From Salinispira sp. (GTDB lineage Bacteria > Spirochaetota > Spirochaetia > DSM-27196 > Salinispiraceae): a DNA stretch of 64,000 bases. Both the position numbers and the translations under genes were made by a program. The notes below the pieces were generated by a model. The model was not told the DNA's origin, ran no database searches, and saw only the letters and a program-made list of their open reading frames with translations. The stretch lies in the NCBI GenBank assembly GCA_965602015.1, contig OZ271918.1, positions 2,848,001 to 2,912,000 on the forward strand, given 5' to 3'. Shown here in pieces: positions 4,364-19,022 of the stretch. How positions within the stretch are numbered: the first letter of the stretch is position 1; the number at the start of each line of letters is the position of its first letter.

Positions 4364-4473
4364 ATTAACTCCCCCGGTGAAGTATACACCGTCCAGTTAT
4401 GCACTTCAATGAGGTTCCTGCGCGATCGATAAAACCTGTTCCCCATCCCGTCATATCGGTTTACAGTGGCAGT

Positions 4474-7400
4474 ATGGCGTATCTCACTCCCCGTTTTATA
4501 ATAAATAACCATGTTGAAGGCAGGAAAAACGGTGAAATGCGGGTCATTTCCCTCTTCCTGGACATCTCGGGTTTCACTGCGATGACCGACTCCCTTATTT
4601 CACGGGGCAAGTCGGGAACTGAAACTCTTTCCCAGATAATCAATTCGGTATTTAAACCCCTTCTATCGGTGGTGTACGCCGCAGGAGGGTTCGTCACCAC
4701 CTTCGCCGGGGATGCGTTCACCGCGGTTTTTCCCCTGGAAGGCACAGCTGTTCTGTCCGGTCAAAACAATCCGGACGCAAAACAGGTGCTGGCCGCCGCT
4801 GCGGCAATGCTCAGGCAGTTTCACGACAAGCCCCTTCACCGGACGCCTTGGGGAGAATTCCTTCTCAAGGCAAAGGTTGGGATAGGATGCGGATCTGTTC
4901 AGTGGGGTATTCTCCAGGATGATGATTCGGCAGGATATTACTTCCGGGGTCCAGGCATCGATTCGGCCGCGGAAGCCGAGCATCACTGCCAGCCCGGCGA
5001 CCTGGCCATTACAGCAGACCTCGAAGTCGATATATCGGAGGCCGGCTCTGAGCTGCCCCGCCAATTGGGTAATTACCTGGTGCTCAAACCGGATTTTTCC
5101 CGGGCAGCCTCCGCTGAGGGCGGGCTCTCCAACGATGCCCGTGCTGCCCTGGAGATCGGATTCCCTCAGGAGACCGCATCGCTTTTTATGCCGCTGCGCT
5201 TTCTCCCGGGAGGCAGCGGAGGGGAATTTCGGGAAATCGTAAGCGTGTTTATTTCTTTCGACGACCGTTCGATAGACCTGGATACCCTGTTTTCTTCGAT
5301 TACCCGCAATGTCCAGCGCAGCGGCGGGTATTTTAACCTCATCGACTTCGGCGACAAGGGCGGTGTAGCCCTGGTGCTTTTCGGCGCTCCGGTCAGCCTT
5401 GAATTCCCGGTACAACAGGCCCTGGATTTTACCTGGAATCTGCGAACCGAGGTGCCGGAGCTCCGGATCGGCATCTCCCGGGGTCCCTGCTATGCTGGCT
5501 ATGTCGGATCTGAATTGCGGAGCACGTATACCGCACTGGGAGGAGTAGTTAACCTCTCTGCCCGCTTGGCCATGTCAGCCGAAGGACCAGAGATCCTGGT
5601 GCAGGAGTCGCTCATCCGGGAAGTGTCCGAGGGTTACGGGTTTGAAGCGCTCAAGCCGCTCACACTGAAAGGTTTTGCCGAACCCCAGCCGCTGGCCAGG
5701 TTTGTGAAGCGCGAGCACGTTGCGTCGGGTTCCCGGGAGACCGGTGTGGGAAGAAGGACGGAAAACGAGCTTCTCAGCGATGCAGTTCAAAGGCTGGCTC
5801 AGGGCTACGGATTCGGCACAATTATTGTCAGCGGCGAGGCCGGCATCGGGAAGAGTCAACTGCTGTCCGATGTTATGTCGGGACTCGATGAGGCTGACCG
5901 ACCTCATACAATTTTTCTGCGCTATGACGATCTCAACCGGGGATTTTTGCGCCCTGTTGCGGACTACATCGGAGGAGTGCTGGAAGAGTACCAGATTGAC
6001 GATGCCGGCCGGAGTCCTGAGCAGATGCAAAAGGCATTCGAAAAGCTTCGTCTGGATTTACAAGCCGGGGACGGAGTCCCGGATTTTCTCATTAATGAGA
6101 TGAATCGCGCCCTCCCTCCGCTGATGTCCATGAAGGACGAATGGTATCCCTCTGAACCTTCGGGAGCAATGTCGGATTATTCACAGCTCGATTCCCAGGC
6201 CCAAAGCGACCGGGTTTTGGAGGCGCTGATCGCGGTCTTCTCCCTCATGGCCATTGGCAGTCCGCGGCTGATCGTCGTGGAAAACGCCCAGGACATGGAC
6301 GAGAGTTCGATAGAGCTGTTCAACCGATTACTGTCCAGGGCGAAGGAACTGCCGATATCGCTGCTTTTTCTCACCCGAAACGAGGATTTTTTTGCCCGCA
6401 TGACGGTTCCCAAATCCCAGTTCATCAGGCTTCAGGCCTTCACCCGGGATGAAATCGCCGAACTGGTCAAGAAGCGCTTCAAACTCAGCGGCAGCGGAGA
6501 TCTCATCGATTTTCTGGCGACCAGAACCGACGGAGTACCCCTCTACCTCCAGGAGTTACTGCGCTATCTCAGAGAGAAGGGACTGCTCTACACCGAGGCC
6601 GAGACTGTCCGCTTAAGAAGCGTCGATGCATCGGTACTGCCCTCCTCCCTAGAGGCCCTCATTCTGAGCCAAATTGATCGGCTTCCCCAAAAGACGAAGG
6701 CGGTGCTTTCCGCCGCTGCGGTTCTCGGACAACGGATTGAGCACCCGGTTCTGACCGAGATGATAGCAATCCTCAATGCTTCCGGCGACAAAAGCCTTCC
6801 GGCGGGGCAACAGGAGAACAAAGATATACTGGATGCCCTGGCCAGCGCGTCTATACTCAATGCCATTGACGACGGGGTCAGCGAGTTTACCAAAAGTCTG
6901 CTGCGGGATTCGCTGTACAAACTCCAGTTCGACCGGCGGCTTCAGGAGTTGCACGGAGCTGCTGCGGACAGCCTCCTGAGCTGTTATCCCGAAGACGCTG
7001 ACAGATCGGCACAAAAGGCTTACCACCTGGAACGATCCGATCGACCCGACGAGGCCAGGAAATTCTATCGGTTGGCAGCTGATGCCGCCTTGTATAATTA
7101 TCAGAACAGTCAGGCCATGCGCTACCTGGAATGTATTCTCGAGCTGTCGAATGACGACCGGGAAAAGGCGGAGGTCTACCTGGATATGGCTAAGATTCTC
7201 GAAGTCACCGGCGACTGGGATCAGGCCCGGAGGCGACTGGAACTTGGGGTCGGGCTGGCAACCATTTCCGGCGAAGAGGGCATGTATCAACAGTTTTTCT
7301 CCATGCTCGGCCAGATCAGTTTCCGAAGGGGAAACACCGGTCAGGCGAAGTCCTATTTCGAAAAGGCCCTTCGCCGGGGCGAATATGACCAGGTGACCGA

Positions 7401-8469
7401 GGCCATGGTGGAAGTCCGACTCGGTCTGGCGCGTTCCCTCATGCGGGAAGCCCGCAACGCAGAAGCGCTCTCCCGGCTTTTCGAATCCCGGGATCTCGCC
7501 AGGGAAAAGGGATACCGGGCCAAGGAGGCCCAAATCCTCTATCACCTCGGGCAGATTTACCGAAGCAGCGGCGAAAGCGAGCGGGCAGTCGAGGCCCTCG
7601 AGGAATCCCACCGGATGTTCGTCGAACTCAACCTCATCCGCGAAATAGCGAATCCTTTATACGATCTCGGGCAAATATATATGAACAGCGGCCGGCTGGG
7701 AGAATCTCGCGAGACATTTTCAAAGATTCTGGAAACCTACAGCCAGATCGGTTATAAAAGCGGACTGGCAGCCGCCCTCATTAATCTAGGCGCCATTGAA
7801 GACCAGGTGGGTAACTTCCAGGCGGCCAGTGACCATTACCGCCGATCCCGGAACATCGCCCAGGAAATCGAGGAAGCCCCGGCTCTGGGCTATGCCCTCT
7901 TCTGCCTGGGTTCAAGCGCGTACAAGGCGGGGGAGTATACCCAGGCAATCTCCTATCTGAATGATGCGTTCAAAATATTCAGGGATATCGACCTGCGGAC
8001 CTATTTCAGTTACCCACTTTCATACCTGGTCGCCACCAATGTGCGGATGGGCGAGGTTGATCAAGCTCTGGATGAGGCCCAGGAACTGCTAAAAATAATT
8101 CATGAGCTCGGTGAAGACGGTGAACACGGAAGGATTTTCCTATCCCTCGGGGAACTTTTTGAGCGCAAGCTTCCCCTAAGCGATAAAAACAAGCAGTCGG
8201 TAAAGCACATCGCCCGTCTGGCGGGAATGAAATTCGTCAGCGCCCAGGCATTGTATCGCAAGGCCATTGAGGAATCCCGCAATCCTAAGTACATAAACAC
8301 CCTCATTCCCGCCCTCTACAGCTACGGGCGGGTACTTATGGCATCCGCCGACCATGCGAAACGGGAAAGCGGTAGGACATATGTGCAGAGGGCGGTACGG
8401 GAGTGCAGAAGCGCCGGATGGGAGAGCTATCTGGGCAGAATCCTCAAGCAATTTCCGGAGATTGAATGA
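4474..8469 (+). CDS. soluble-AC-like adenylate cyclase with tandem class III domains, P-loop ATPase and TPR repeats
   Basis: FLDISGFT and FAGDA (C1), GDKG and YTALGGVVNLSARL (C2), GEAGIGKS Walker A, C-terminal TPRs; start placed at ATG 4474. Confidence 0.88.
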   Translation: MAYLTPRFIINNHVEGRKNGEMRVISLFLDISGFTAMTDSLISRGKSGTETLSQIINSVFKPLLSVVYAAGGFVTTFAGDAFTAVFPLEGTAVLSGQNNPDAKQVLAAAAAMLRQFHDKPLHRTPWGEFLLKAKVGIGCGSVQWGILQDDDSAGYYFRGPGIDSAAEAEHHCQPGDLAITADLEVDISEAGSELPRQLGNYLVLKPDFSRAASAEGGLSNDARAALEIGFPQETASLFMPLRFLPGGSGGEFREIVSVFISFDDRSIDLDTLFSSITRNVQRSGGYFNLIDFGDKGGVALVLFGAPVSLEFPVQQALDFTWNLRTEVPELRIGISRGPCYAGYVGSELRSTYTALGGVVNLSARLAMSAEGPEILVQESLIREVSEGYGFEALKPLTLKGFAEPQPLARFVKREHVASGSRETGVGRRTENELLSDAVQRLAQGYGFGTIIVSGEAGIGKSQLLSDVMSGLDEADRPHTIFLRYDDLNRGFLRPVADYIGGVLEEYQIDDAGRSPEQMQKAFEKLRLDLQAGDGVPDFLINEMNRALPPLMSMKDEWYPSEPSGAMSDYSQLDSQAQSDRVLEALIAVFSLMAIGSPRLIVVENAQDMDESSIELFNRLLSRAKELPISLLFLTRNEDFFARMTVPKSQFIRLQAFTRDEIAELVKKRFKLSGSGDLIDFLATRTDGVPLYLQELLRYLREKGLLYTEAETVRLRSVDASVLPSSLEALILSQIDRLPQKTKAVLSAAAVLGQRIEHPVLTEMIAILNASGDKSLPAGQQENKDILDALASASILNAIDDGVSEFTKSLLRDSLYKLQFDRRLQELHGAAADSLLSCYPEDADRSAQKAYHLERSDRPDEARKFYRLAADAALYNYQNSQAMRYLECILELSNDDREKAEVYLDMAKILEVTGDWDQARRRLELGVGLATISGEEGMYQQFFSMLGQISFRRGNTGQAKSYFEKALRRGEYDQVTEAMVEVRLGLARSLMREARNAEALSRLFESRDLAREKGYRAKEAQILYHLGQIYRSSGESERAVEALEESHRMFVELNLIREIANPLYDLGQIYMNSGRLGESRETFSKILETYSQIGYKSGLAAALINLGAIEDQVGNFQAASDHYRRSRNIAQEIEEAPALGYALFCLGSSAYKAGEYTQAISYLNDAFKIFRDIDLRTYFSYPLSYLVATNVRMGEVDQALDEAQELLKIIHELGEDGEHGRIFLSLGELFERKLPLSDKNKQSVKHIARLAGMKFVSAQALYRKAIEESRNPKYINTLIPALYSYGRVLMASADHAKRESGRTYVQRAVRECRSAGWESYLGRILKQFPEIE

Positions 8470-8855: not shown

Positions 8856-9206
8856 ATGAAGTACATGTTCCTGCTCTACGACAAGCCGGAAATCGACCCC
8901 AAACTCGAGGAAGAGGAAATGCCTCTGTGGTTCGAATATACAAAGAAACTGCAGGACGCCGGGGTGCTCATCGGAGGGGAAGCCCTTGAAGGAATCAGCA
9001 CTGCAACGACGATCCGGGGTAAGGCCGCCAAGGGCTACGAAATGTTCGACGGTCCCTTCGCTGAGACCAAGGAGGTCCTCTCGGGATATTACATCATCGA
9101 TGTTGACAATCTGGACGAAGCGGCGAAGTGGGCGTCACAGGTTCCCCACGTGGCTCACGGAGGCACGGTGGAAATTCGCCCGGTGTTCGAAATGCCCGAC
9201 GAGTAA
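8856..9206 (+). CDS. YciI/DGPF-family protein
   Basis: DGPFAETKE motif, G.VEIRP. Confidence 0.92.
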   Translation: MKYMFLLYDKPEIDPKLEEEEMPLWFEYTKKLQDAGVLIGGEALEGISTATTIRGKAAKGYEMFDGPFAETKEVLSGYYIIDVDNLDEAAKWASQVPHVAHGGTVEIRPVFEMPDE

Positions 9207-10439
9207 ATGGGCGGCGGCATTGCGGATTTTGCCAGAGAATCCTACTCACGCCTCTTTTCTTCCCTGTATTCCCGGTTCCGGGACATGGAGTTGGTTGAAG
9301 ATGGGATTCAGGATGCCATAGAAAAGCTTCTTGGCCGGCGGGGGAATCCTCCACGGGATACCCTCGCCTGGCTCTACACTGCGGCGAAAAACCGCATCCT
9401 CGACACCCTTAAAAGCAAGGCGGCACAGTTGGTGGCATACGCCGAGGAAATACACGGCGGGAGTGAAAGCGGAACTGATCCCTTCCAGGTTGATGAACAG
9501 CTTCGTCTCATGTGCCTCTGCTGTCATCCGGCTCTGGGTGAGCGGGTACAGATACTACTCACCCTGAAGCTGGTGGCCGGCCTCACATCCGGGGAGATTG
9601 CCGCCGCCCTGGTGATGAAAAAAAAGAGCGTCGAACAGGCACTTACCAGGGCAAAGGAAAAAATAAGGATAGCCGGCATACCATTCCGGACTCCCGAGGA
9701 CGGCGATCTGACCGATCGTCTGTCGGCCATTCGGAAGACGGTGTATCTCATGTTTAATGAGGGGTACCACAGCAACTCGGGGCAGGGGACGCAACGGCCC
9801 GACCTATGCAATGAAGCCATCCGCCTCGCCCGGCTGCTTGTGACCCTGTCGGGAGCCGATTCCCATCCTTCGCTATCTCTTCTGGCATTACTGCTATACC
9901 AGAACTCCCGGAGAAGAGCCCGCTTCAGCGACGATGGAGAGCCAATTCTCTTAAAAGATCAGGACAGGAACCTGTGGGACAGGGACCTGATTCGGGAAGC
10001 ACATGAACTGTTTGAAGCCCTGCTTCCTGCCACCCCCAATAAGCCGAACGAGTATTTCTTCCAGGCGGCCATAGCCAGGGAGTACGCCAGAGCTCCGGGG
10101 TATGAGGAGAGCAATTGGCCGCAAATCTGCCGGCTCTACGCCGATTACTACTACGCATACCCAAACCCCGTCGTGCTGCTTTCCTGGATTGGCGCGGAGT
10201 CCCAGCGCAGCACTCCCCGCATCGCCCTGGAACTCATGAAAAAGTTCGATCTACATACCCACTTGAAGGATTACCGCTGGTTTTACTCAGTCCGGGGCGA
10301 GCTCCGAGCCAAAACCGGCGATGCGGCCGGCGCATCAGCCGATTTATCAAGGGCGCTCTCACTCGCGGTAAATCCCGGGGAGCGGCGGCTATTGGAACGG
10401 CGCCTGGGGGAAATCGACGAGACTCTTGCTAAACGCTAA
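9207..10439 (+). CDS. ECF sigma factor with C-terminal TPR-like extension (ECF42 type)
   Basis: AWL...AKNR, LRLM..CCHPAL, YLMFNEGY, L.DQDR..WD; directly follows the DGPF gene. Confidence 0.9.
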   Translation: MGGGIADFARESYSRLFSSLYSRFRDMELVEDGIQDAIEKLLGRRGNPPRDTLAWLYTAAKNRILDTLKSKAAQLVAYAEEIHGGSESGTDPFQVDEQLRLMCLCCHPALGERVQILLTLKLVAGLTSGEIAAALVMKKKSVEQALTRAKEKIRIAGIPFRTPEDGDLTDRLSAIRKTVYLMFNEGYHSNSGQGTQRPDLCNEAIRLARLLVTLSGADSHPSLSLLALLLYQNSRRRARFSDDGEPILLKDQDRNLWDRDLIREAHELFEALLPATPNKPNEYFFQAAIAREYARAPGYEESNWPQICRLYADYYYAYPNPVVLLSWIGAESQRSTPRIALELMKKFDLHTHLKDYRWFYSVRGELRAKTGDAAGASADLSRALSLAVNPGERRLLERRLGEIDETLAKR

Positions 10440-11462: not shown

Positions 11463-12140
11463 ATGGCGAAAACCCGCAAAGGCAGAGCCCGGGCAGGTCT
11501 GAGTCGGGAACTGGTTGTGGCGGCGGCGGTCGAGTATGCCGACCGCTTGGGGATAGATGCCCTATCGATGAGAAAGCTCGCAGGTGATTTGGGGGTGGAG
11601 GCGATGAGCCTGTACAACCACGTGAAAAACAAGGAAGCCCTCACCAAGGCAATGCTCGATGTGGTTACCGGAAAGTTTTCCCTGCCGGAGGAACCACTGA
11701 CATGGAGGGAATTTTTATTTGAAAGGGGCGAGTCGATGTACCAGGGCCTGGTGGAGCACCCCTGGTCTTCAATGACGCTTATGTCCACCTTTTACGACGG
11801 GCCGTTATTTTTGCAGTTTATGGACCGGAGTTTCGGCTTTTTGGAAGATGCGGGCTTCAGCCTCGACAGAGCGGACTGGATACTCAATGCGGCGGACAGT
11901 TTCACTTACGGCTTTGTACTGCAGAAAATCAATTTCCCCATAGCCGACGAGAACATGGGTGCGGTCGCGGAAGCATCCCTGGACCTGGTGCCTCCGGACA
12001 GCCTTCCGCATCTGAATCGCCTCACCGCCATGGTTGCCCGGGGAGAATACGACGGCTTGTTCGACTACCACTTCGGGCTGTCGGCATTGGTGCGGGGTTT
12101 TGACGAACCCGGGCGGTCAGCCGGCACTACTGGGCGGTGA
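11463..12140 (+). CDS. TetR-family regulator (TetR_C type)
   Basis: LSMRKLA..LGVEAMSLYNHV.NK HTH and C-terminal F.FGL..L..G. Confidence 0.92.
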   Translation: MAKTRKGRARAGLSRELVVAAAVEYADRLGIDALSMRKLAGDLGVEAMSLYNHVKNKEALTKAMLDVVTGKFSLPEEPLTWREFLFERGESMYQGLVEHPWSSMTLMSTFYDGPLFLQFMDRSFGFLEDAGFSLDRADWILNAADSFTYGFVLQKINFPIADENMGAVAEASLDLVPPDSLPHLNRLTAMVARGEYDGLFDYHFGLSALVRGFDEPGRSAGTTGR

Positions 12141-12897
12141 AACCCCCGTCCACCGTCAGGATGTGCCCCGTGAGAAACACCGGTGCCTCGCTGAGAAGCC
12201 AGAGGGCTACAGATGCGACCTCTTCGGGTTCGGCAATCCGGCCGATGGGGTGGCCTTCACCGTAGGCTTTTTCTATCTCAGGACGGCCTCCGGTGCTCCG
12301 CTTAAAAATGTCGGTCCGCACGGAGGCCGGGGCGATGGCGTTTACCGATACTCCCCGGGACGAATATTCCAGGGCGGCAGTGCGGGTGAGTCCGTTGACC
12401 GCGTGGCGGCTCGCATTGTAGGCGGATCGGCCCGGCCGGGCCACCGATCCGCATATGCTCGACATATTCACAATTCTCCCGCCGCCGTTTCGCAGCATCA
12501 TGGCCAATTCCCTCTGCATGAGCAGAAAGGTCCCCCGGAGATTAATGTCGAGAATGCGGTCGAATTCCTCTATGCTCGTTTCCAGAATCTCGGCCTTTTC
12601 CCCGTCGATACCCGCATTGTTAAATGCCCCGTCCAGGACGCCGTGCTGATCCCCGATGTGGCGGAACAAGCGGTCGAGGTCTTCGACCTTTGAGCTGTCC
12701 GACGGGTGAAACTCAGCGGTGTATCCGAAGTCCCTCAATTCATCCTGGAACGCATAACCGAGCTCCCGCCGCCGCCCGGTAAATATCAGCCGGGCGCCTT
12801 TGGCTGCAATGAGCCGGCAGGCTTCCCTGCCGATACCCGAAGTTCCGCCGGTAACCAGAATGACCTTGCCAGTAAGAACGGCTGCAGACCTGCTCAC
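12127..12897 (-). CDS. short-chain dehydrogenase/reductase
   Basis: TGGTSGIG, NNAG, YNASR (Arg at the usual Lys), VDGG; GTG start overlaps the upstream stop (GTGA). Confidence 0.9.
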   Translation of the reverse strand: MSRSAAVLTGKVILVTGGTSGIGREACRLIAAKGARLIFTGRRRELGYAFQDELRDFGYTAEFHPSDSSKVEDLDRLFRHIGDQHGVLDGAFNNAGIDGEKAEILETSIEEFDRILDINLRGTFLLMQRELAMMLRNGGGRIVNMSSICGSVARPGRSAYNASRHAVNGLTRTAALEYSSRGVSVNAIAPASVRTDIFKRSTGGRPEIEKAYGEGHPIGRIAEPEEVASVALWLLSEAPVFLTGHILTVDGGFTAQ

Positions 12898-14099
12898 AAG
12901 ACGGCCTCTTCGGGAACCTTGCACGAGCGTTTCAAAAAGAGCTCGAGTGCCTCGCTCTCAAACTCGTCGCCGAATACCAGGCGCTGACCCCGGCTTCCCG
13001 CCGATATAAGCGTGGCGCTCCCGTTTGCTGTGCCGAGCCCTGAGATGAGCAGAATAAACTCGCATGCCCCGCTTTCCGGCAGCTCGCCGCCGGATCCGAG
13101 CTTTATTTCGGCTCCCGACAGGTTGATCAGATTCACTTCCCGTTCGATCCAGCGGCTCTGGGGATCCGTTCTGATAAGCAGACTGTAATCCCGGTGATCC
13201 GCGGGAATAAAGGGCAGCGAGCGCAGTTCATCGCGCTTCATACGCCGTATCCGCCGGAATACCCCGGTTCCGATATTGCTGCCCGCGCAGGTTACCACTC
13301 CGCTCTTTTGTCCGTTCTGATGGATTGATATATCCAGGCTGACGAAGGACCACACGCCCCGGTGCAGCTTTTTCCGGGTCAGTTCTGCTCTCAGTACCAC
13401 CGGAGCATAGAGCTCGAGAAAACCGCTGAACCGGGCTTCCAACACGTCGAGTATCATGTGGGAGCCCTCCAGGGGGACCGCCCCGTACTGGTGACCGCAG
13501 GCGATGATCATCTGGCGGCATGCTTCAAGAAGCATAATTCCCGGCACGTGCTCGTTGGGATGCTCAAAAAAGAAGGGGTGGCTTGTCTCCACAACCATGT
13601 TCGCCAGATACACTTCTTCCCGATATCCGGCATCGCCCTTCTCGACTATGGCGGACACCTCAGCCTGCAGCGAGTTGTCCGTGTAATACTCCCGTTTGTC
13701 GGCGGTTTTGATTATCCGGTTCAAAAGATCATCGTCGGGAATTTTTTTCAGATAGCGGGTTCCCGCGGCATCGCATTCACCGCCGTAATGGTCGTCCAGA
13801 TGACCCGCGAGGTCTTCATTGAGCGAAATCCGGACCGCCTCATACTGTTCCCGGCTGAGTTTCATTACCCCCAGGATTTCCCGGTGGGCATACACCGGCC
13901 CATCGCCCAGGAGTCCACCCGATTCGACCAGCCGGTACACCGAATACAGGGCATCTTTTTCTTCAGTGTTGAGCCGGGACGCCAGGGTATCCATTTCATC
14001 AGGAGAAATGCTCTTCGGGAGCATTCTCCTGAGATTCGCCAATAATACATTGCTTTCGCGGTTTTTATGGACCAACCGCCGGTCAACAAGCCTATCCAT
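12894..14099 (-). CDS. AfsA-related hotdog-fold protein with large insertion and possible C-terminal PilZ-like domain
   Basis: N-terminal VDRRLVHK...NVLL and [23 protein letters not shown] motifs typical of A-factor biosynthesis hotdog domains. Confidence 0.75.
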
Positions 14100-16140
14100 C
14101 GCCTTCCTCCCCGAGCGAGAACTGATCGCAGATGCCTTCGAGATCCCTGGAAACCGCGGTGTTCGATTCCGAAGTTTTTCTCAGTTCCACAAGCATGGCC
14201 GAGATATCTTCGTTACTCCGGTGCTGCTCCAGGGTTGCGCCGCGGATGTAGTCCGACATGTGGACCAGATCGGCCATGGCATTCTCAATGTGCCGGCTCT
14301 TGCCGTTGACGTTATCCATCAGCTCTTTAATGCTGTTCGTGGCGTCAACCACCGATGAAACCGAAGCGAGCACCTCGTCGGTTCCCGCCCGCTGCTCGGT
14401 CATGGCCGACGACACCAGATCGATGAGCCCGGTGGTCTCTTCAATACCCTTGAGAATGCTTCTGAAAGACCGACCGGCTTCTTCGGTCTGTTCGACGCCG
14501 CTTTCAACGCGGTCTGACATCTGTTGAATCTGCTCGTATATTTGACGGGACTGGGACGAACTGCTTTCGGCGAGTTTGCGTATTTCCGACGCCACGACGG
14601 CGAAGCCCCGGCCGGCCTCGCCGGCATGGGCGGCCTCTATGGCGGCGTTCATCGCCAGGAGGTTTGTCTGTTCGGATACGTCGGCGATTATTTTGACGAA
14701 CTCCGCAACCCGGACCGCGCTTTCCCTGATGACCCGGATCGATTCGATGCTTTTCCCCAGCTGCTCTTCACCCTCCCGGGCAGTATTCCCCAGCTTCTGG
14801 CCCAGCTCATTTGCCAGGTCGGTGTTTTTGGCGACCGAGGCGATGTTGCCGGCCATCTCGCTCATGGCGCCGGCGGTCTGCTCAATAAACGACGACTGGT
14901 TCTCCACATCAATCCTGGCCCGGTCCATATCCTGCTGCATCTGGGCTATGAGGTCCCGGACGAGGGTTACCGAGCCGGATTGCTCCTCTGCGCTTGACGA
15001 TATCTGCCGCACCGAACTGACGACCTCGTGCATCGCTGCCGAAGCCTGTTCCGCGGCGCTGTCCATGCTGACCGAAGAAAGGGATATGCGCTGGCTTCCT
15101 CCGGCCACGCTGACGAGAATGCTTTCAAGGGTCCCCATGAAGCGGTTTATCAGGTCTGACAGCTCACCGACCTCGTCGTAGGCGGTAATAAACAGCCGTT
15201 CGGTGAGACGGTCCTTTCCGTCGAGAATTCCCCGGATTTTCCGCTGCTGAAGCCGGAGCTGAAGGGTTATTTCCCTGGCGTACACGGCAATGACGATTAA
15301 CACGATGGCGGCAATGGCGATAAAGCCGAGATACACGCCAAAGCGAACCGCCCTGCGGCGGGCTTCCCCGGCTGCAATAATCCGCTCAAATGACGGCGCC
15401 GGATCCAGCCGGGAAAAAAGGCCGTCGAAGTTAGCCCGGGCTGCCTGCATATTGCCCCCTGAGGCCAAAATCTCCGCGCTTACCGTGGATTCGATTTCCC
15501 AGGCGAAATAGAGCTTGGGAATGAAATAACTCACGGCGTAGAGGGCCAGGAGGCTGCCGATGAGCACGGTTTTCGCCCGGAGCCCGCCGGACTTCCTCAC
15601 CTCGCCGATGCTGGTTATTTTCATCACGCTTCGGACCGGGGTCAGCACCTGATTGTTGAGGGATATCTGAACGAAGGCATACACGACGGAACTCGAAAGG
15701 GTAAAAACCAGCTGGAACCACAGGCGGGGACTGTCGGGATTGGAAAACAGTCCCCGGTTCCATGCGAAGAGCAGGGTTCCCAGGAAAAAGCTGATAAAGT
15801 TCAGCAGGAAAATAAATGCCGGGAGGGCGAACATGCGCTTTTTCGCCAACTTCATTTCCTCAGCCGGCGCTCCTCCGCCGGACAGTAGTCGGCGGTAGGT
15901 TTTAGTAATGGGCAGGGTGTAGGCGTATATCGCTCCGGAAAAAAGCAGGAGGATGGGTATAACATTCACCAGCATAAATGTGGAGAAGTAGCTCCACAGT
16001 CCGCTCAACGGATCGATGCCGATAATTGCCTGTTCGATTACGTGGTCGGTAATCGTCAGGATGCTCAGGGGCAGCAGGAACACCAGTACGGTATTTCTTA
16101 CTATCCTGATGGAGACATTGCTTTTTTTCATCTGGGTCAT
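14092..16140 (-). CDS. methyl-accepting chemotaxis protein with multi-TM sensor region
   Basis: [35 protein letters not shown] hairpin, HAMP-like DEVGEL, about 6 TM segments. Confidence 0.92.
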
Positions 16141-16157
16141 AGACTCTCCGGCCCGGC

Positions 16158-17216
16158 CTACTGAATGTAGGCCAGGGCTATTTCGAGGCTGTCAGGAAAG
16201 TTGGAGAAGCCCAAAAGCCTTCCCTCGGCATCGGCGGTCCAGGAATTCACGGTGTGCACCCGGTAGATTTTCCCCGTGCTAAACACCCGCCACTCTTCGT
16301 AGAGAATGACGTCGGCCCGGTTTCCTTCACTGACTATGAAGCGCTCGACAAAAACCGGCTCCGCGGTGCCCCCCAGGTTGCCCACAAAACTGAGAATTTC
16401 ATTTTTACCCTCGTAGGAACCCGCAAAGGGATAACTCTGAGGATCTCCCTTGAAATACACTGCGGCATCATCGGACAAGAGTTCGAACACAGCGGGAATA
16501 TCGCCGGCGTAAAACAGATCGTAGAGGGTGTCGACTTTTTCAGCGACGCCGTCCACATTAACGCCGATTTCATAGGAATCGTCGGGGTTGCGGATGTCGG
16601 TAAAAAGCCGTCCGTCGGCATTGCCGCCGAATGCCCGGGTCCATGCCTGGGTGTCGTAATACATCCTCGCTTCGCTTATATAGCCGCTGCGGCCGAAGCG
16701 GAAAAGGAATACGGTCTCAAGATCGATTTCGGCCCCGGTAGATACCACCTCCGCGCGTATTTGAACGTGGCTGCTCACGTAATCGTTCTCGGCGAGCTGA
16801 TACTGAACGTCGACCTCCCGGATATCAAGTTCCCTCCACAACTGTCTGAAGTAGCGGTCAACCTCGCGGCCTCCGCTGTATTCCCCCGAAAGGGGCACCC
16901 GCCCCCCGGCGAGGCCGGTGATGGTAAGTTCGGAGCCCCGGACGAAAAACCGGGATGTGAGAAAGTGCTCCCGGGAATAGAGCTCGAAAAACAGCCTCAG
17001 GTAATGCTTACGGGCCTGGTAAATCCAATCCGGCGAAAGGGTCCTGCTGGCGCTTTCCGTCCTGACGCTCATGTCCATGACGCTTCCCGGAGGAGGCGGA
17101 AGCTCGGAAATCTCCATCTGGTGGTCCGGGTCCATAAACGGCTCGGTACACGAGCTGATAAAAACGGCTGCAATGACAATACATGCTATACGAAAAAATG
17201 TGCTGGCGGTGTTCAC
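16158..17216 (-). CDS. lipoprotein with two SnoaL/NTF2-like domains
   Basis: GTG 17216 with AGGAG RBS, lipobox ISSC, two repeats of P..G.Y.G..E...F ... ending Y.DT / F.DS. Confidence 0.75.
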
Positions 17217-17301: not shown

Positions 17302-17331
17302 TAGCAATGTATTGCTAGCAAGATCTTGCTA
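17302..17331. promoter_or_regulatory. tandem palindromic operator TAGCAA-N4-TTGCTA x2
   Basis: TAGCAATGTATTGCTA (17302-17317) and perfect palindrome TAGCAAGATCTTGCTA (17316-17331) in the divergent intergenic region. Confidence 0.65.
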
Positions 17332-17417: not shown

Positions 17418-19022
17418 ATGAAACCACTGTTGGAAAGAGTTTCGGATATTTACTCGTCGGAGCATCCCCAAATTCGCATAAAGGCCAGGACCATGCTTGT
17501 CATCGCACTGGCGTCCTCTGCCCTGCTTATTATCAGCCTGGCAATTCGCCTCATAACGGGTAACTTCGCGGTAGCCCTGCTGGGGGCATCGGCGCTGGCG
17601 GCTATCTGGACCGGAATGGGTTTTCTGTTCAGGGGCAGGGCGGTTGCTGCCAGCAATATTCTTCTTATTGCCGCGGGCACGGGGGCTTTGGCAATTTCCT
17701 ATGAAGGGGTGAGCGGCGATCCGGCGGCGCTGTACTCCGTGGCCTTATACGCAATGATTCCCCTGTTTTCCATCGTGTTGTTCGGCATGAAACGCTATCA
17801 GTATTTTATCATCCTCGGCGAAACCGTCGCGGTGTACGTCCTTGCGCTCATCGTGAAGATCCTCCCCATGGGGCTGGAAACCGCGCAAGTGCTGGGGCCC
17901 GTAATCGGTTCTTCCCTGGTGTTCCTTACCCTCTTCGCATTCCTTTTGGTCGCCAGTCGAAATTCCGAGCGCCTCATCGCAGATGTGGCCCGGCAGGCCG
18001 AAGAACTGCAGCTGCAGATCAACAGGCAAAACGCCTTGCTTGCAAATGTGGAAAAGAGTCTTGATACCGGCAGCGCCCTCCGGGAAAAAGCCGGCTTATC
18101 CCAGGAAATGACTGCAAAAATCAGCGCCAGCCTTGAAGAAATGGGAAAACACACCCACAGCCTTCGGGAACAGGCGGAACTCACCACCAGGTCCCAGCAT
18201 GCGGTAACTCAGGCAAATGACTCGGTGAAAAACCAGATGAGTGAACAGAGCGCGGCGGTAACCGAATCTTCCGCATCAATAGAACAGATGTCGTCGAACA
18301 TCGCATCCATATCCAACTCCGCCCGAGAGAAAAAACAGTTCGTCGACCAGCTCAATAAGCGGCTGTCCGACGGTGAACGTTCAATGGCCCAGACCCGTCA
18401 ACTCATCGAACAGATGAATACATCCATGAAAAGCATGCTGGACATTATCACAGTAATCGAGGATGTTTCGGACCGCACCAACCTGCTGGCCATGAACGCA
18501 TCCATCGAGTCGGCCCATGCGGGGGAACAAGGTCGGGGATTCGCTGTGGTGGCTCAGGAGATCCGCAAGCTCAGCGAGGAGACCCGGGTGAACTCGGCGA
18601 ATATCCGCTCTTCCATTGAGGAAAACCGGGAACTCATGGGCCAAACCCAGGAGGCCATCCTGGCCAACAGCGAGAACTTCAAAGCGATAACCAGTGAGGT
18701 CGTACAGGTTAGCCAGGCATTTCAGGAGATCCTCTCATCGACCCAGGAATTGCAAACCGGAACCATGGAGATCGTACAATCCACCGTTCTGCTCAAAGAC
18801 GGACACGATCAGGTCGATCGTGCCCTGGAAACCATGGAGACCACCATCGCTTCCACCGGCGAGAGCATACAGAAAATCGTAGAATCGGCAAAACTGATCG
18901 GAGAACGCATCGGTGACATCACCCGCACCGCCGGCACCATTCGAGGCGCTGCAGAAGATGTGTCCCGCATCGGCTCGGAAAACCTCGAAGCCGTCGAGAG
19001 CCTCAGAGAAGCCCTCCAGTAG
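17418..19022 (+). CDS. methyl-accepting chemotaxis protein, integral-membrane sensor
   Basis: [33 protein letters not shown]; about 6 TM helices in the first 180 aa. Confidence 0.92.

Follow-up and report, generated by a model that had tools for sequence, protein, structure and literature searches.

Outside the actinobacteria, what receives the signals made by AfsA-type synthases is an open question. A four-gene operon in the spirochaete Salinispira sp. raises it in a specific form: could the receiver be a chemoreceptor encoded beside the synthase? The operon lies in a 64,000-nt stretch of DNA (the window; contig OZ271918.1, positions 2,848,001 to 2,912,000, assembly GCA_965602015.1) of a complete 3.87-Mb genome, and the closest homologues of its synthase carry spirochaete names. 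It encodes a double-SnoaL lipoprotein, a methyl-accepting chemotaxis protein (MCP), an AfsA-type synthase and a short-chain dehydrogenase/reductase (SDR). A first-pass annotation, made from the sequence alone, had proposed that the last two make a lactone that the MCP reads. Our comparisons show that the locus is real and conserved; it is apparently a variant of AfsA-type signalling that has not been described, and its probable reader is a chemoreceptor.

The four open reading frames all lie on the minus strand, and their junctions, read directly, have the spacings given in the first-pass annotation. The lipoprotein gene (16158..17216, 352 aa) stops 17 nt before the ATG of the MCP gene (14092..16140, 682 aa), which overlaps the synthase gene (12894..14099, 401 aa) by 8 nt; the synthase gene shares a GTGA overlap with the SDR gene (12127..12897, 256 aa counted from the GTG of that overlap, with 12924 as start of the longest open reading frame). 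These junctions indicate translational coupling. Hidden Markov models confirm the four gene identities, since SnoaL_2, MCPsignal, AfsA and the SDR family all score above the cut-off of their own Pfam family, the standard used throughout. Linkage of MCP and synthase, for which a neighbourhood survey had been suggested, recurs in other spirochaete genomes. The order MCP-synthase-SDR is also found in genomes G005 and G007, the latter with the lipoprotein as well, and an MCP adjoins the synthase at L074, L080, G231 and G238 too, at 24-28% synthase identity (the G231 and G238 joins rest on gene fragments and on collinearity with L080 and L074). No GC anomaly marking an island was found at the locus.

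The synthase has one stretch matching Pfam AfsA (PF03756; residues 160-271, 88.5 bits against a cut-off of 24) and is the only AfsA match in the genome. Its AlphaFold2 (AF2) model (predicted local distance difference test, pLDDT, 86) contains a single hotdog, the first strand of which is split off by an insert of ~135 residues (about residues 26-160), followed by a beta-barrel. The tandem AfsA repeats are thus absent, with one Pfam stretch and one hotdog in the model; the second repeat in a Streptomyces protein of AfsA type shares 49% identity with it over 69 aa. Against the ScbA/BarX model NF041195 it reaches 60.7 bits, below the cut-off of 200, and only over model positions 197-267. The AfsA-like assignment therefore stands, borne out by the Pfam model and the hotdog fold, whereas membership in the canonical ScbA/BarX family does not; the single repeat and a PilZ-like C-terminal domain had been overlooked. 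Foldseek with the model gives FabZ hotdogs as top matches (E 1.4e-5), and the synthase profile matched no sequence in the PDB; the available part of PMC13454427 states that no ScbA/AfsA structure has been reported. A profile search collected 116 cluster representatives at E<=1e-30. In an alignment of 163 unique homologues, chosen as full-length, E192 of the ExxR motif is present in 163/163 and R195, Q196 and H184 each in 162/163. E192 and R195, aligned to the second repeat of the Streptomyces homologue, match E240 and R243 of ScbA, which mutagenesis has shown to be essential (cited in PMC13454427, available in part); the first-repeat pair of ScbA, E78/R81, has no counterpart in the monomer. 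The enzyme is a one-repeat AfsA-PilZ fusion and not a canonical AfsA.

The PilZ-like domain (residues 296-392; 12924..13214, minus strand) was recognised by comparison with a stand-alone PilZ protein from this genome (hhalign 94.9%, E 4.6e-8). The beta-rich C-terminus of the AF2 model agrees with a PilZ barrel, and Pfam PilZ is above cut-off in the relatives L082, L001, L018, L184 and L198. Both cyclic di-GMP motifs are eroded in this synthase, where the aligned positions read LxxxP and LxNxxG versus RxxxR and D/NxSxxG. Across the 163 homologues R...RF occurs in none and D/NxSxxG in 98, and basic RxxxR strings sit a few residues upstream of the motif position, off register. The domain itself is kept in all 163 (a set selected as full-length). 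A structural or adaptor role would here be more likely than that of a cyclic di-GMP switch.

The MCP (PF00015 MCPsignal, 121.9 bits against 34.6) is an intact chemoreceptor. Hydropathy and the AF2 model (pLDDT 88) give six long helices in the first 295 residues, followed by a weak HAMP domain, signalling arms of 172 and 174 residues with the hairpin tip at 508, and three methylation-consensus sites. By the size of its arms we take it to belong to the 48-heptad class. The genome has 32 MCPsignal matches (about 30 genes) and five CheW-domain matches. The membrane sensor domain (residues 9-295; 15256..16116, minus strand) is without a known family or solved fold: it scores above cut-off with no Pfam family, neither PDB sequences nor Foldseek gave a match at E<=0.001, and it has no close paralog among the roughly 30 MCPs of the genome. 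ESM Atlas gave a best value of 0.87, with MASE10 rows at 0.80, all under 0.9 and to be read as leads only.

A receptor profile made from five synthase-adjacent MCP copies matched 28 of 401 genomes of the phylum and 15 of the 99 of the host's order. In a quick IQ-TREE analysis of 38 full-length rows (nine partial rows and duplicates dropped), the synthase-adjacent MCPs form one clade of eight rows, namely this MCP and those of G005, G007, P0167, L074, L080, G238 and G165 (Shimodaira-Hasegawa-like approximate likelihood ratio test 97). Seven of the eight adjoin a synthase; six were seen directly upstream of it, and the position of P0167 is deduced from three proteins whose contigs have one and the same length, 272,061 nt. 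The eighth, in G165, has a double-SnoaL lipoprotein next to it at a contig start, and the MCP-group synthase of G165 begins another contig, so that this join is not shown; no contig-end overlaps joining MCP and synthase contigs were found in G165, G231 or G238. Partial receptor copies are added by G231 and L073, the clade-like MCP fragment of L073 lying 2.1 kb from a synthase. For 14 of the 30 MCPs outside the clade a wider flanking region was read, with no synthase in any of them (0/14). Compared with the sister clade, the synthase-adjacent MCPs have specific residues at Y51, F55, Y74, F146, Y154, F156 and S204, which are aromatic or polar and lie in membrane helices; this suggests, and does not prove, a distinct pocket.

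The SDR (adh_short_C2, 203.5 bits against 27) is 47-59% identical to the SDRs of the other cassettes versus 30-33% to three paralogs found in the genome. By sequence it belongs to a cassette-specific clade of its own, of predicted classical NAD(P)-dependent ketoreductase type. It has the TGGTSGIG motif and YNASR in place of YxxxK, and YxxSR is found in 7/7 aligned clade rows. Its identity to SDRs encoded near afsA in Streptomyces is 24-37%, which is a generic level.

The lipoprotein has two stretches matching SnoaL_2 (PF12680; 51.6 bits against 27) and a lipobox, ISSC, ending at Cys23. It is 48% identical to the G007 copy and 26% to the G165 copy directly behind the clade MCP. The family is found in 4/401 genomes, all among the 55 with the synthase, two of the four having been in the search profile; the five more distant homologues mostly have no lipobox. 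Because it is missing from the close relative G005, the lipoprotein is optional. SnoaL domains also occur in other settings: in G202 three SnoaL genes are grouped with an IspH-like gene, an MCP and an SDR of the cassette type, and the cytoplasmic IspH-like enzyme of G231 carries a fused SnoaL domain. The lipoprotein would thus belong to the cassette as an accessory, with a tailoring role as open as a binding role. Of the earlier idea that a periplasmic SnoaL protein handles the ligand, the membership in the cassette and the lipobox hold, and an obligatory part does not.

The synthase profile matches 55 of the 401 sampled Spirochaetota genomes, among them 36 of the 75 in family f28; an intact synthase is present in only 3/99 genomes of the host's order. 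In all, 56 of 73 unique synthase loci fall in a spirochaete clade. By a rough classification of neighbours (BLAST to annotated representatives), a sensor gene for an MCP, kinase or PP2C protein lies within 4 kb at 48 of the 56, and at 30 of 38 once 18 near-kin of f28 are removed. An MCP is therefore one of several sensor types beside this family. The sensors are often accompanied by a lipoprotein of ligand-binding type, and several kinase-type loci hold a PDC-domain lipoprotein where the SnoaL lipoprotein stands here. Tailoring neighbours include HAD phosphatases, SDRs, condensation-type acyltransferases and an IspH-like protein. Proteobacterial homologues (21-27% identity) are arranged in the order synthase, NADH:flavin oxidoreductase, SDR, SDR. 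G093, of another family, retains a collapsed remnant (L223:7700-8800), where fragments of the MCP, the synthase and the SDR follow one another as in the operon; all three genes have decayed jointly there. Each of the f52 genomes G165, G231 and G238 has a kinase-linked synthase as well as a second one that belongs to the MCP-type group.

Several loci of the wider family have features of their own. At the f28 loci that were read (L184:1312-9065, L185 and L186), the synthase is coupled to an SDR and to a 1900-aa Ser/Thr kinase-AAA-GAF-PP2C sensor. The synthase there has RT for its N-terminal HK motif and PPN for EHP, and keeps ExxRQ. The IspH/LytB-like protein recurs beside the synthase (L222:8129-9478; L074:11272-12234; L221:11569-12528), and a reductive tailoring step is possible there. 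An acaterin-like AfsA-PilZ cluster (L088:7404-14046) lies directly next to a luxI/luxR pair. A Rhizobacter AfsA-PilZ gene (L017:9-2844) lies 320 nt behind an unrelated HAMP-MCP, and the long-flank relatives L025 and L096 have none.

Two overlapping palindromes of the form TAGCAA-N4-TTGCTA (17302..17331, no strand) are found 86 nt upstream of the lipoprotein start and are a candidate operator; they could also serve a divergent MCP gene 87 nt away. The motif, which was picked after being seen, has five exact copies in the genome versus 0.015 expected and ranks second among hexamer palindromes with a 4-nt gap. With a relaxed pattern, the sole G005 match is upstream of the MCP-synthase operon and both G007 matches are elsewhere. 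Copies of the palindrome also stand ahead of an ABC permease operon, a Fur-Dps pair and lipoprotein genes (G000 847073, 1761409, 2964557 and 2560198 among the sites), and its presence ahead of unrelated genes points to a small regulon that is wider than the operon. A one-mismatch copy precedes an uncharacterised gene and a membrane-anchored LuxR. Scans for sigma-70 promoters and terminators were at chance level (6 versus 3.0 and 9 versus 7.6, respectively).

Neighbouring genes were considered as parts of the system and dropped. The divergent second MCP (17418-19022) has no conserved counterpart that we saw, and the convergent TetR gene (11463-12140) and the zinc dehydrogenase gene are not conserved. 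The pair of a membrane LuxR and an uncharacterised gene adjoins the operon in G005 and G007 and is 300 kb away in this genome; its uncharacterised member occurs in 36/99 genomes of the order. A hydrolase lipoprotein gene is upstream in G005, and its homologue sits elsewhere in this genome. The uncharacterised gene of the LuxR pair (~190 aa, without a Pfam match) lies with its membrane-anchored LuxR helix-turn-helix (HTH) partner at L244:3789-5195, L111:7668-9010 and L112:12396-13541, and the G005 copy of the membrane LuxR looks frameshifted ahead of its HTH. Elsewhere in the window, as judged by eye without a family scan, positions 4399-8469 encode a 1356-aa adenylate/guanylate-cyclase-like, ATPase and TPR-like protein, and at 8856-10439 a YciI-like gene is coupled to one for an extracytoplasmic-function-sigma-like protein.

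How might the operon work? AfsA-family enzymes join 3-oxoacyl thioesters with triose phosphate (PMC11877004 and PMC7756379, both available in part), and Gram-negative butenolides are made by AfsA-type enzymes together with an SDR (PMC7154651; PMC7756379, in part). By this chemistry the hotdog, probably a homodimer because it has only one ExxR repeat, would condense a 3-oxoacyl-acyl carrier protein from fatty acid synthesis with triose phosphate to a phosphorylated 2-acyl-butenolide, and the SDR would reduce the acyl ketone like ScbB-, SabD- and AcaC-type enzymes. The operon holds neither a phosphatase nor an enoyl reductase (BprA itself was not searched for). As no phosphatase is linked, the phosphate would be stripped by a housekeeping phosphatase or retained; as neither enzyme is linked, a butenolide seems likelier than the gamma-butyrolactone that the first-pass annotation had named beside it. 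The lipophilic product would then bind within the membrane helices of the MCP, as CAI-1 does in CqsS, and signal through CheW and CheA. In the least certain step, the dispensable lipoprotein may hold, present or convert the ligand in the periplasm. Cells would then approach or avoid others of their kind by swimming. We think it very probable that a condensation product of the AfsA kind is formed here, and reasonably probable that the MCP reads it. For the full proposal, a butenolide-type lactone read by a dedicated chemoreceptor, we put the chances as even. The MCP as cognate receptor gains from a clade that tracks the synthase and from the ScbR-type TetR search, in which none of the three carrier genomes (G000, G005 and G007) has a protein above the cut-off of 150 (best, 63 bits); it loses from the MCP being only one of several sensor types.

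Several observations weigh against such a circuit. Its support is wholly genomic, and the receptor search profile (A2) drew on MCPs that adjoin a synthase. Twelve sister-clade MCPs share the membrane domain and none lies beside a synthase; nine sister-clade genomes, including the complete G037, gave no synthase match, and the six-helix fold therefore has other ligands. The SDR carries Arg where the catalytic Lys is expected. HAD profiles found no cassette-type phosphatase in the genome (one match was marginal), and no IspH-like gene was found there. Most proteobacterial members of the family are without an adjacent sensor, and Pseudomonas swarming is unchanged on loss of styrolide (PMC7154651). 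FastTree places the MCP-linked synthases in a 12-row clade (support 96, with a long-branch warning and 12 f28 rows dropped), but a mixture-model tree of 28 rows gave the clade 90 and took in the kinase-linked L072, and approximately unbiased tests rejected neither an MCP-linked synthase clade (p 0.19) nor a grouping by host family (p 0.076). Identities of MCP and synthase correlate (Spearman 0.87, 21 non-independent pairs), as is expected also from shared descent. The synthase clade is thus only moderately supported, and co-evolution of synthase and receptor is at most suggested.

Part of this evidence would fit a synthase and SDR that make a butenolide-type metabolite, either a defence compound or the signal of another receptor, with an MCP that is merely co-regulated and senses an outside cue. 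The sister MCPs of the same fold without a synthase, the sensorless acaterin-like gene orders in proteobacteria and the wider regulon to which the shared palindrome points all favour this explanation. We nevertheless consider it unlikely, since the coupling of MCP and synthase is held across families at 24-28% synthase identity, the genes decayed jointly in G093, and the synthase family is repeatedly paired with different sensor types. The wiring could also be reversed: the product would be the output of a synthase under the control of its sensor, which is an MCP in this operon and a kinase at other loci, perhaps with the PilZ-like domain as adaptor. PilZ adaptors touching chemotaxis proteins exist, and the domain is kept in 163/163 full-length homologues despite the loss of RxxxR; proteobacterial loci that have no sensor retain it as well, however, and MCPs normally signal to CheA and not to enzymes, which makes this arrangement improbable.

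The chemistry itself might be different: the hotdog could be a FabZ-like dehydratase or acyl-transfer enzyme that joins with the SDR in producing a modified membrane lipid, the MCP sensing membrane state. The top structural matches are FabZ dehydratases, one source labels a homologue a dehydratase, and H180, presumably at the position of the FabZ His, is invariant in a 15-row alignment. In the full set, however, H180 occurs in only 88/163, the AfsA-specific ExxRQ and H184 are in 162-163/163 and Pfam AfsA is far above cut-off; the PDB holds no AfsA structure to match (PMC13454427, in part), and the family's neighbours (HAD, SDR and flavin oxidoreductase) are of butenolide pathway types. This explanation is a little more improbable still. 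A TetR-type receptor that reads the product as in Streptomyces, with the MCP as a bystander, would have its candidate in the TetR gene that converges on the SDR gene, but that protein is TetR_C_1-type, scores 17.8 against 150 on ScbR, faces the zinc dehydrogenase gene and has no counterpart that was found at the G005 or G007 loci. With no ScbR above cut-off in the three genomes, such a role is very improbable.

The proposed circuit of synthase and chemoreceptor has partial parallels in known systems. Like the Streptomyces systems (AfsA, ScbA, BarX, SabA and MmfL with ArpA or ScbR), it combines an AfsA hotdog bearing the second-repeat ExxR, a linked SDR and a synthase beside its presumed receptor. 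It differs from them in having one repeat and not two, a large insert, a PilZ-like domain, a score below the NF041195 cut-off and no linked enoyl reductase or phosphatase; moreover, the presumed receptor is a membrane chemoreceptor in place of a TetR protein, with motility and not transcription as output. In Pseudomonas, acaterin (AcaABC) and styrolide (StoBCDE) are likewise made by a Gram-negative AfsA-like enzyme with an SDR (PMC7154651), and these clusters share their make-up with the proteobacterial homologues of this synthase. The likeness is one of gene content; this operon lacks the NADH:flavin oxidoreductase, and PMC7154651 describes no receptor. Taxis of E. coli to AI-2 through LsrB and Tsr also involves a self-made signal, with an MCP as the proposed target of a periplasmic binding protein (PMC5056481, in part), and AI-2 repels H. 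pylori (PMC4488943, in part). AI-2, however, arises as a by-product of metabolism, and its receptor is a general one with a gene at another place, whereas here a synthase and a dedicated receptor clade share one operon. Vibrio CqsA/CqsS provides a six-helix membrane domain for a lipophilic autoinducer, CAI-1 (PMC4821796, in part), but no sequence or fold match to CqsS or to six-helix adenylate-cyclase receptors was found, the chemistry of CqsA differs and the output of CqsS is a kinase. The AfsA Pfam family extends over 12 phyla, with homologues outside the actinobacteria noted, and the available part of the main text of that study does not mention spirochaetes, PilZ or chemotaxis (PMC8209734). 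The earlier statement that no AfsA-MCP circuit is described agrees with the literature searched, which holds neither such a circuit nor an AfsA-PilZ system (most subscription papers lie outside the search); one paper names both elements, each on its own.

The variety of sensors allows a broader and more tentative proposal, to which we give somewhat less than even chances: AfsA-PilZ synthases may make a spirochaete family of butenolide signals with swappable receptors (giant kinase, PP2C protein, Cache-lipoprotein kinase or chemoreceptor), of which this locus would be the version with a six-helix chemoreceptor and a SnoaL lipoprotein. We know of no dedicated signal chemistry for free-living spirochaetes. 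A test would be cheap, because two named species, Salinispira pacifica and Spirochaeta lutea, have homologous synthases on record at NCBI. For the question of AfsA-type receptors outside the actinobacteria, the locus offers a candidate receptor of a new class together with a minimal two-enzyme pathway. If the proposal is true, it would mean a ligand for an orphan membrane sensor domain, itself a new membrane ligand-binding domain, quorum sensing wired straight to the flagellar motor, and the first dedicated signal chemistry for free-living spirochaetes.

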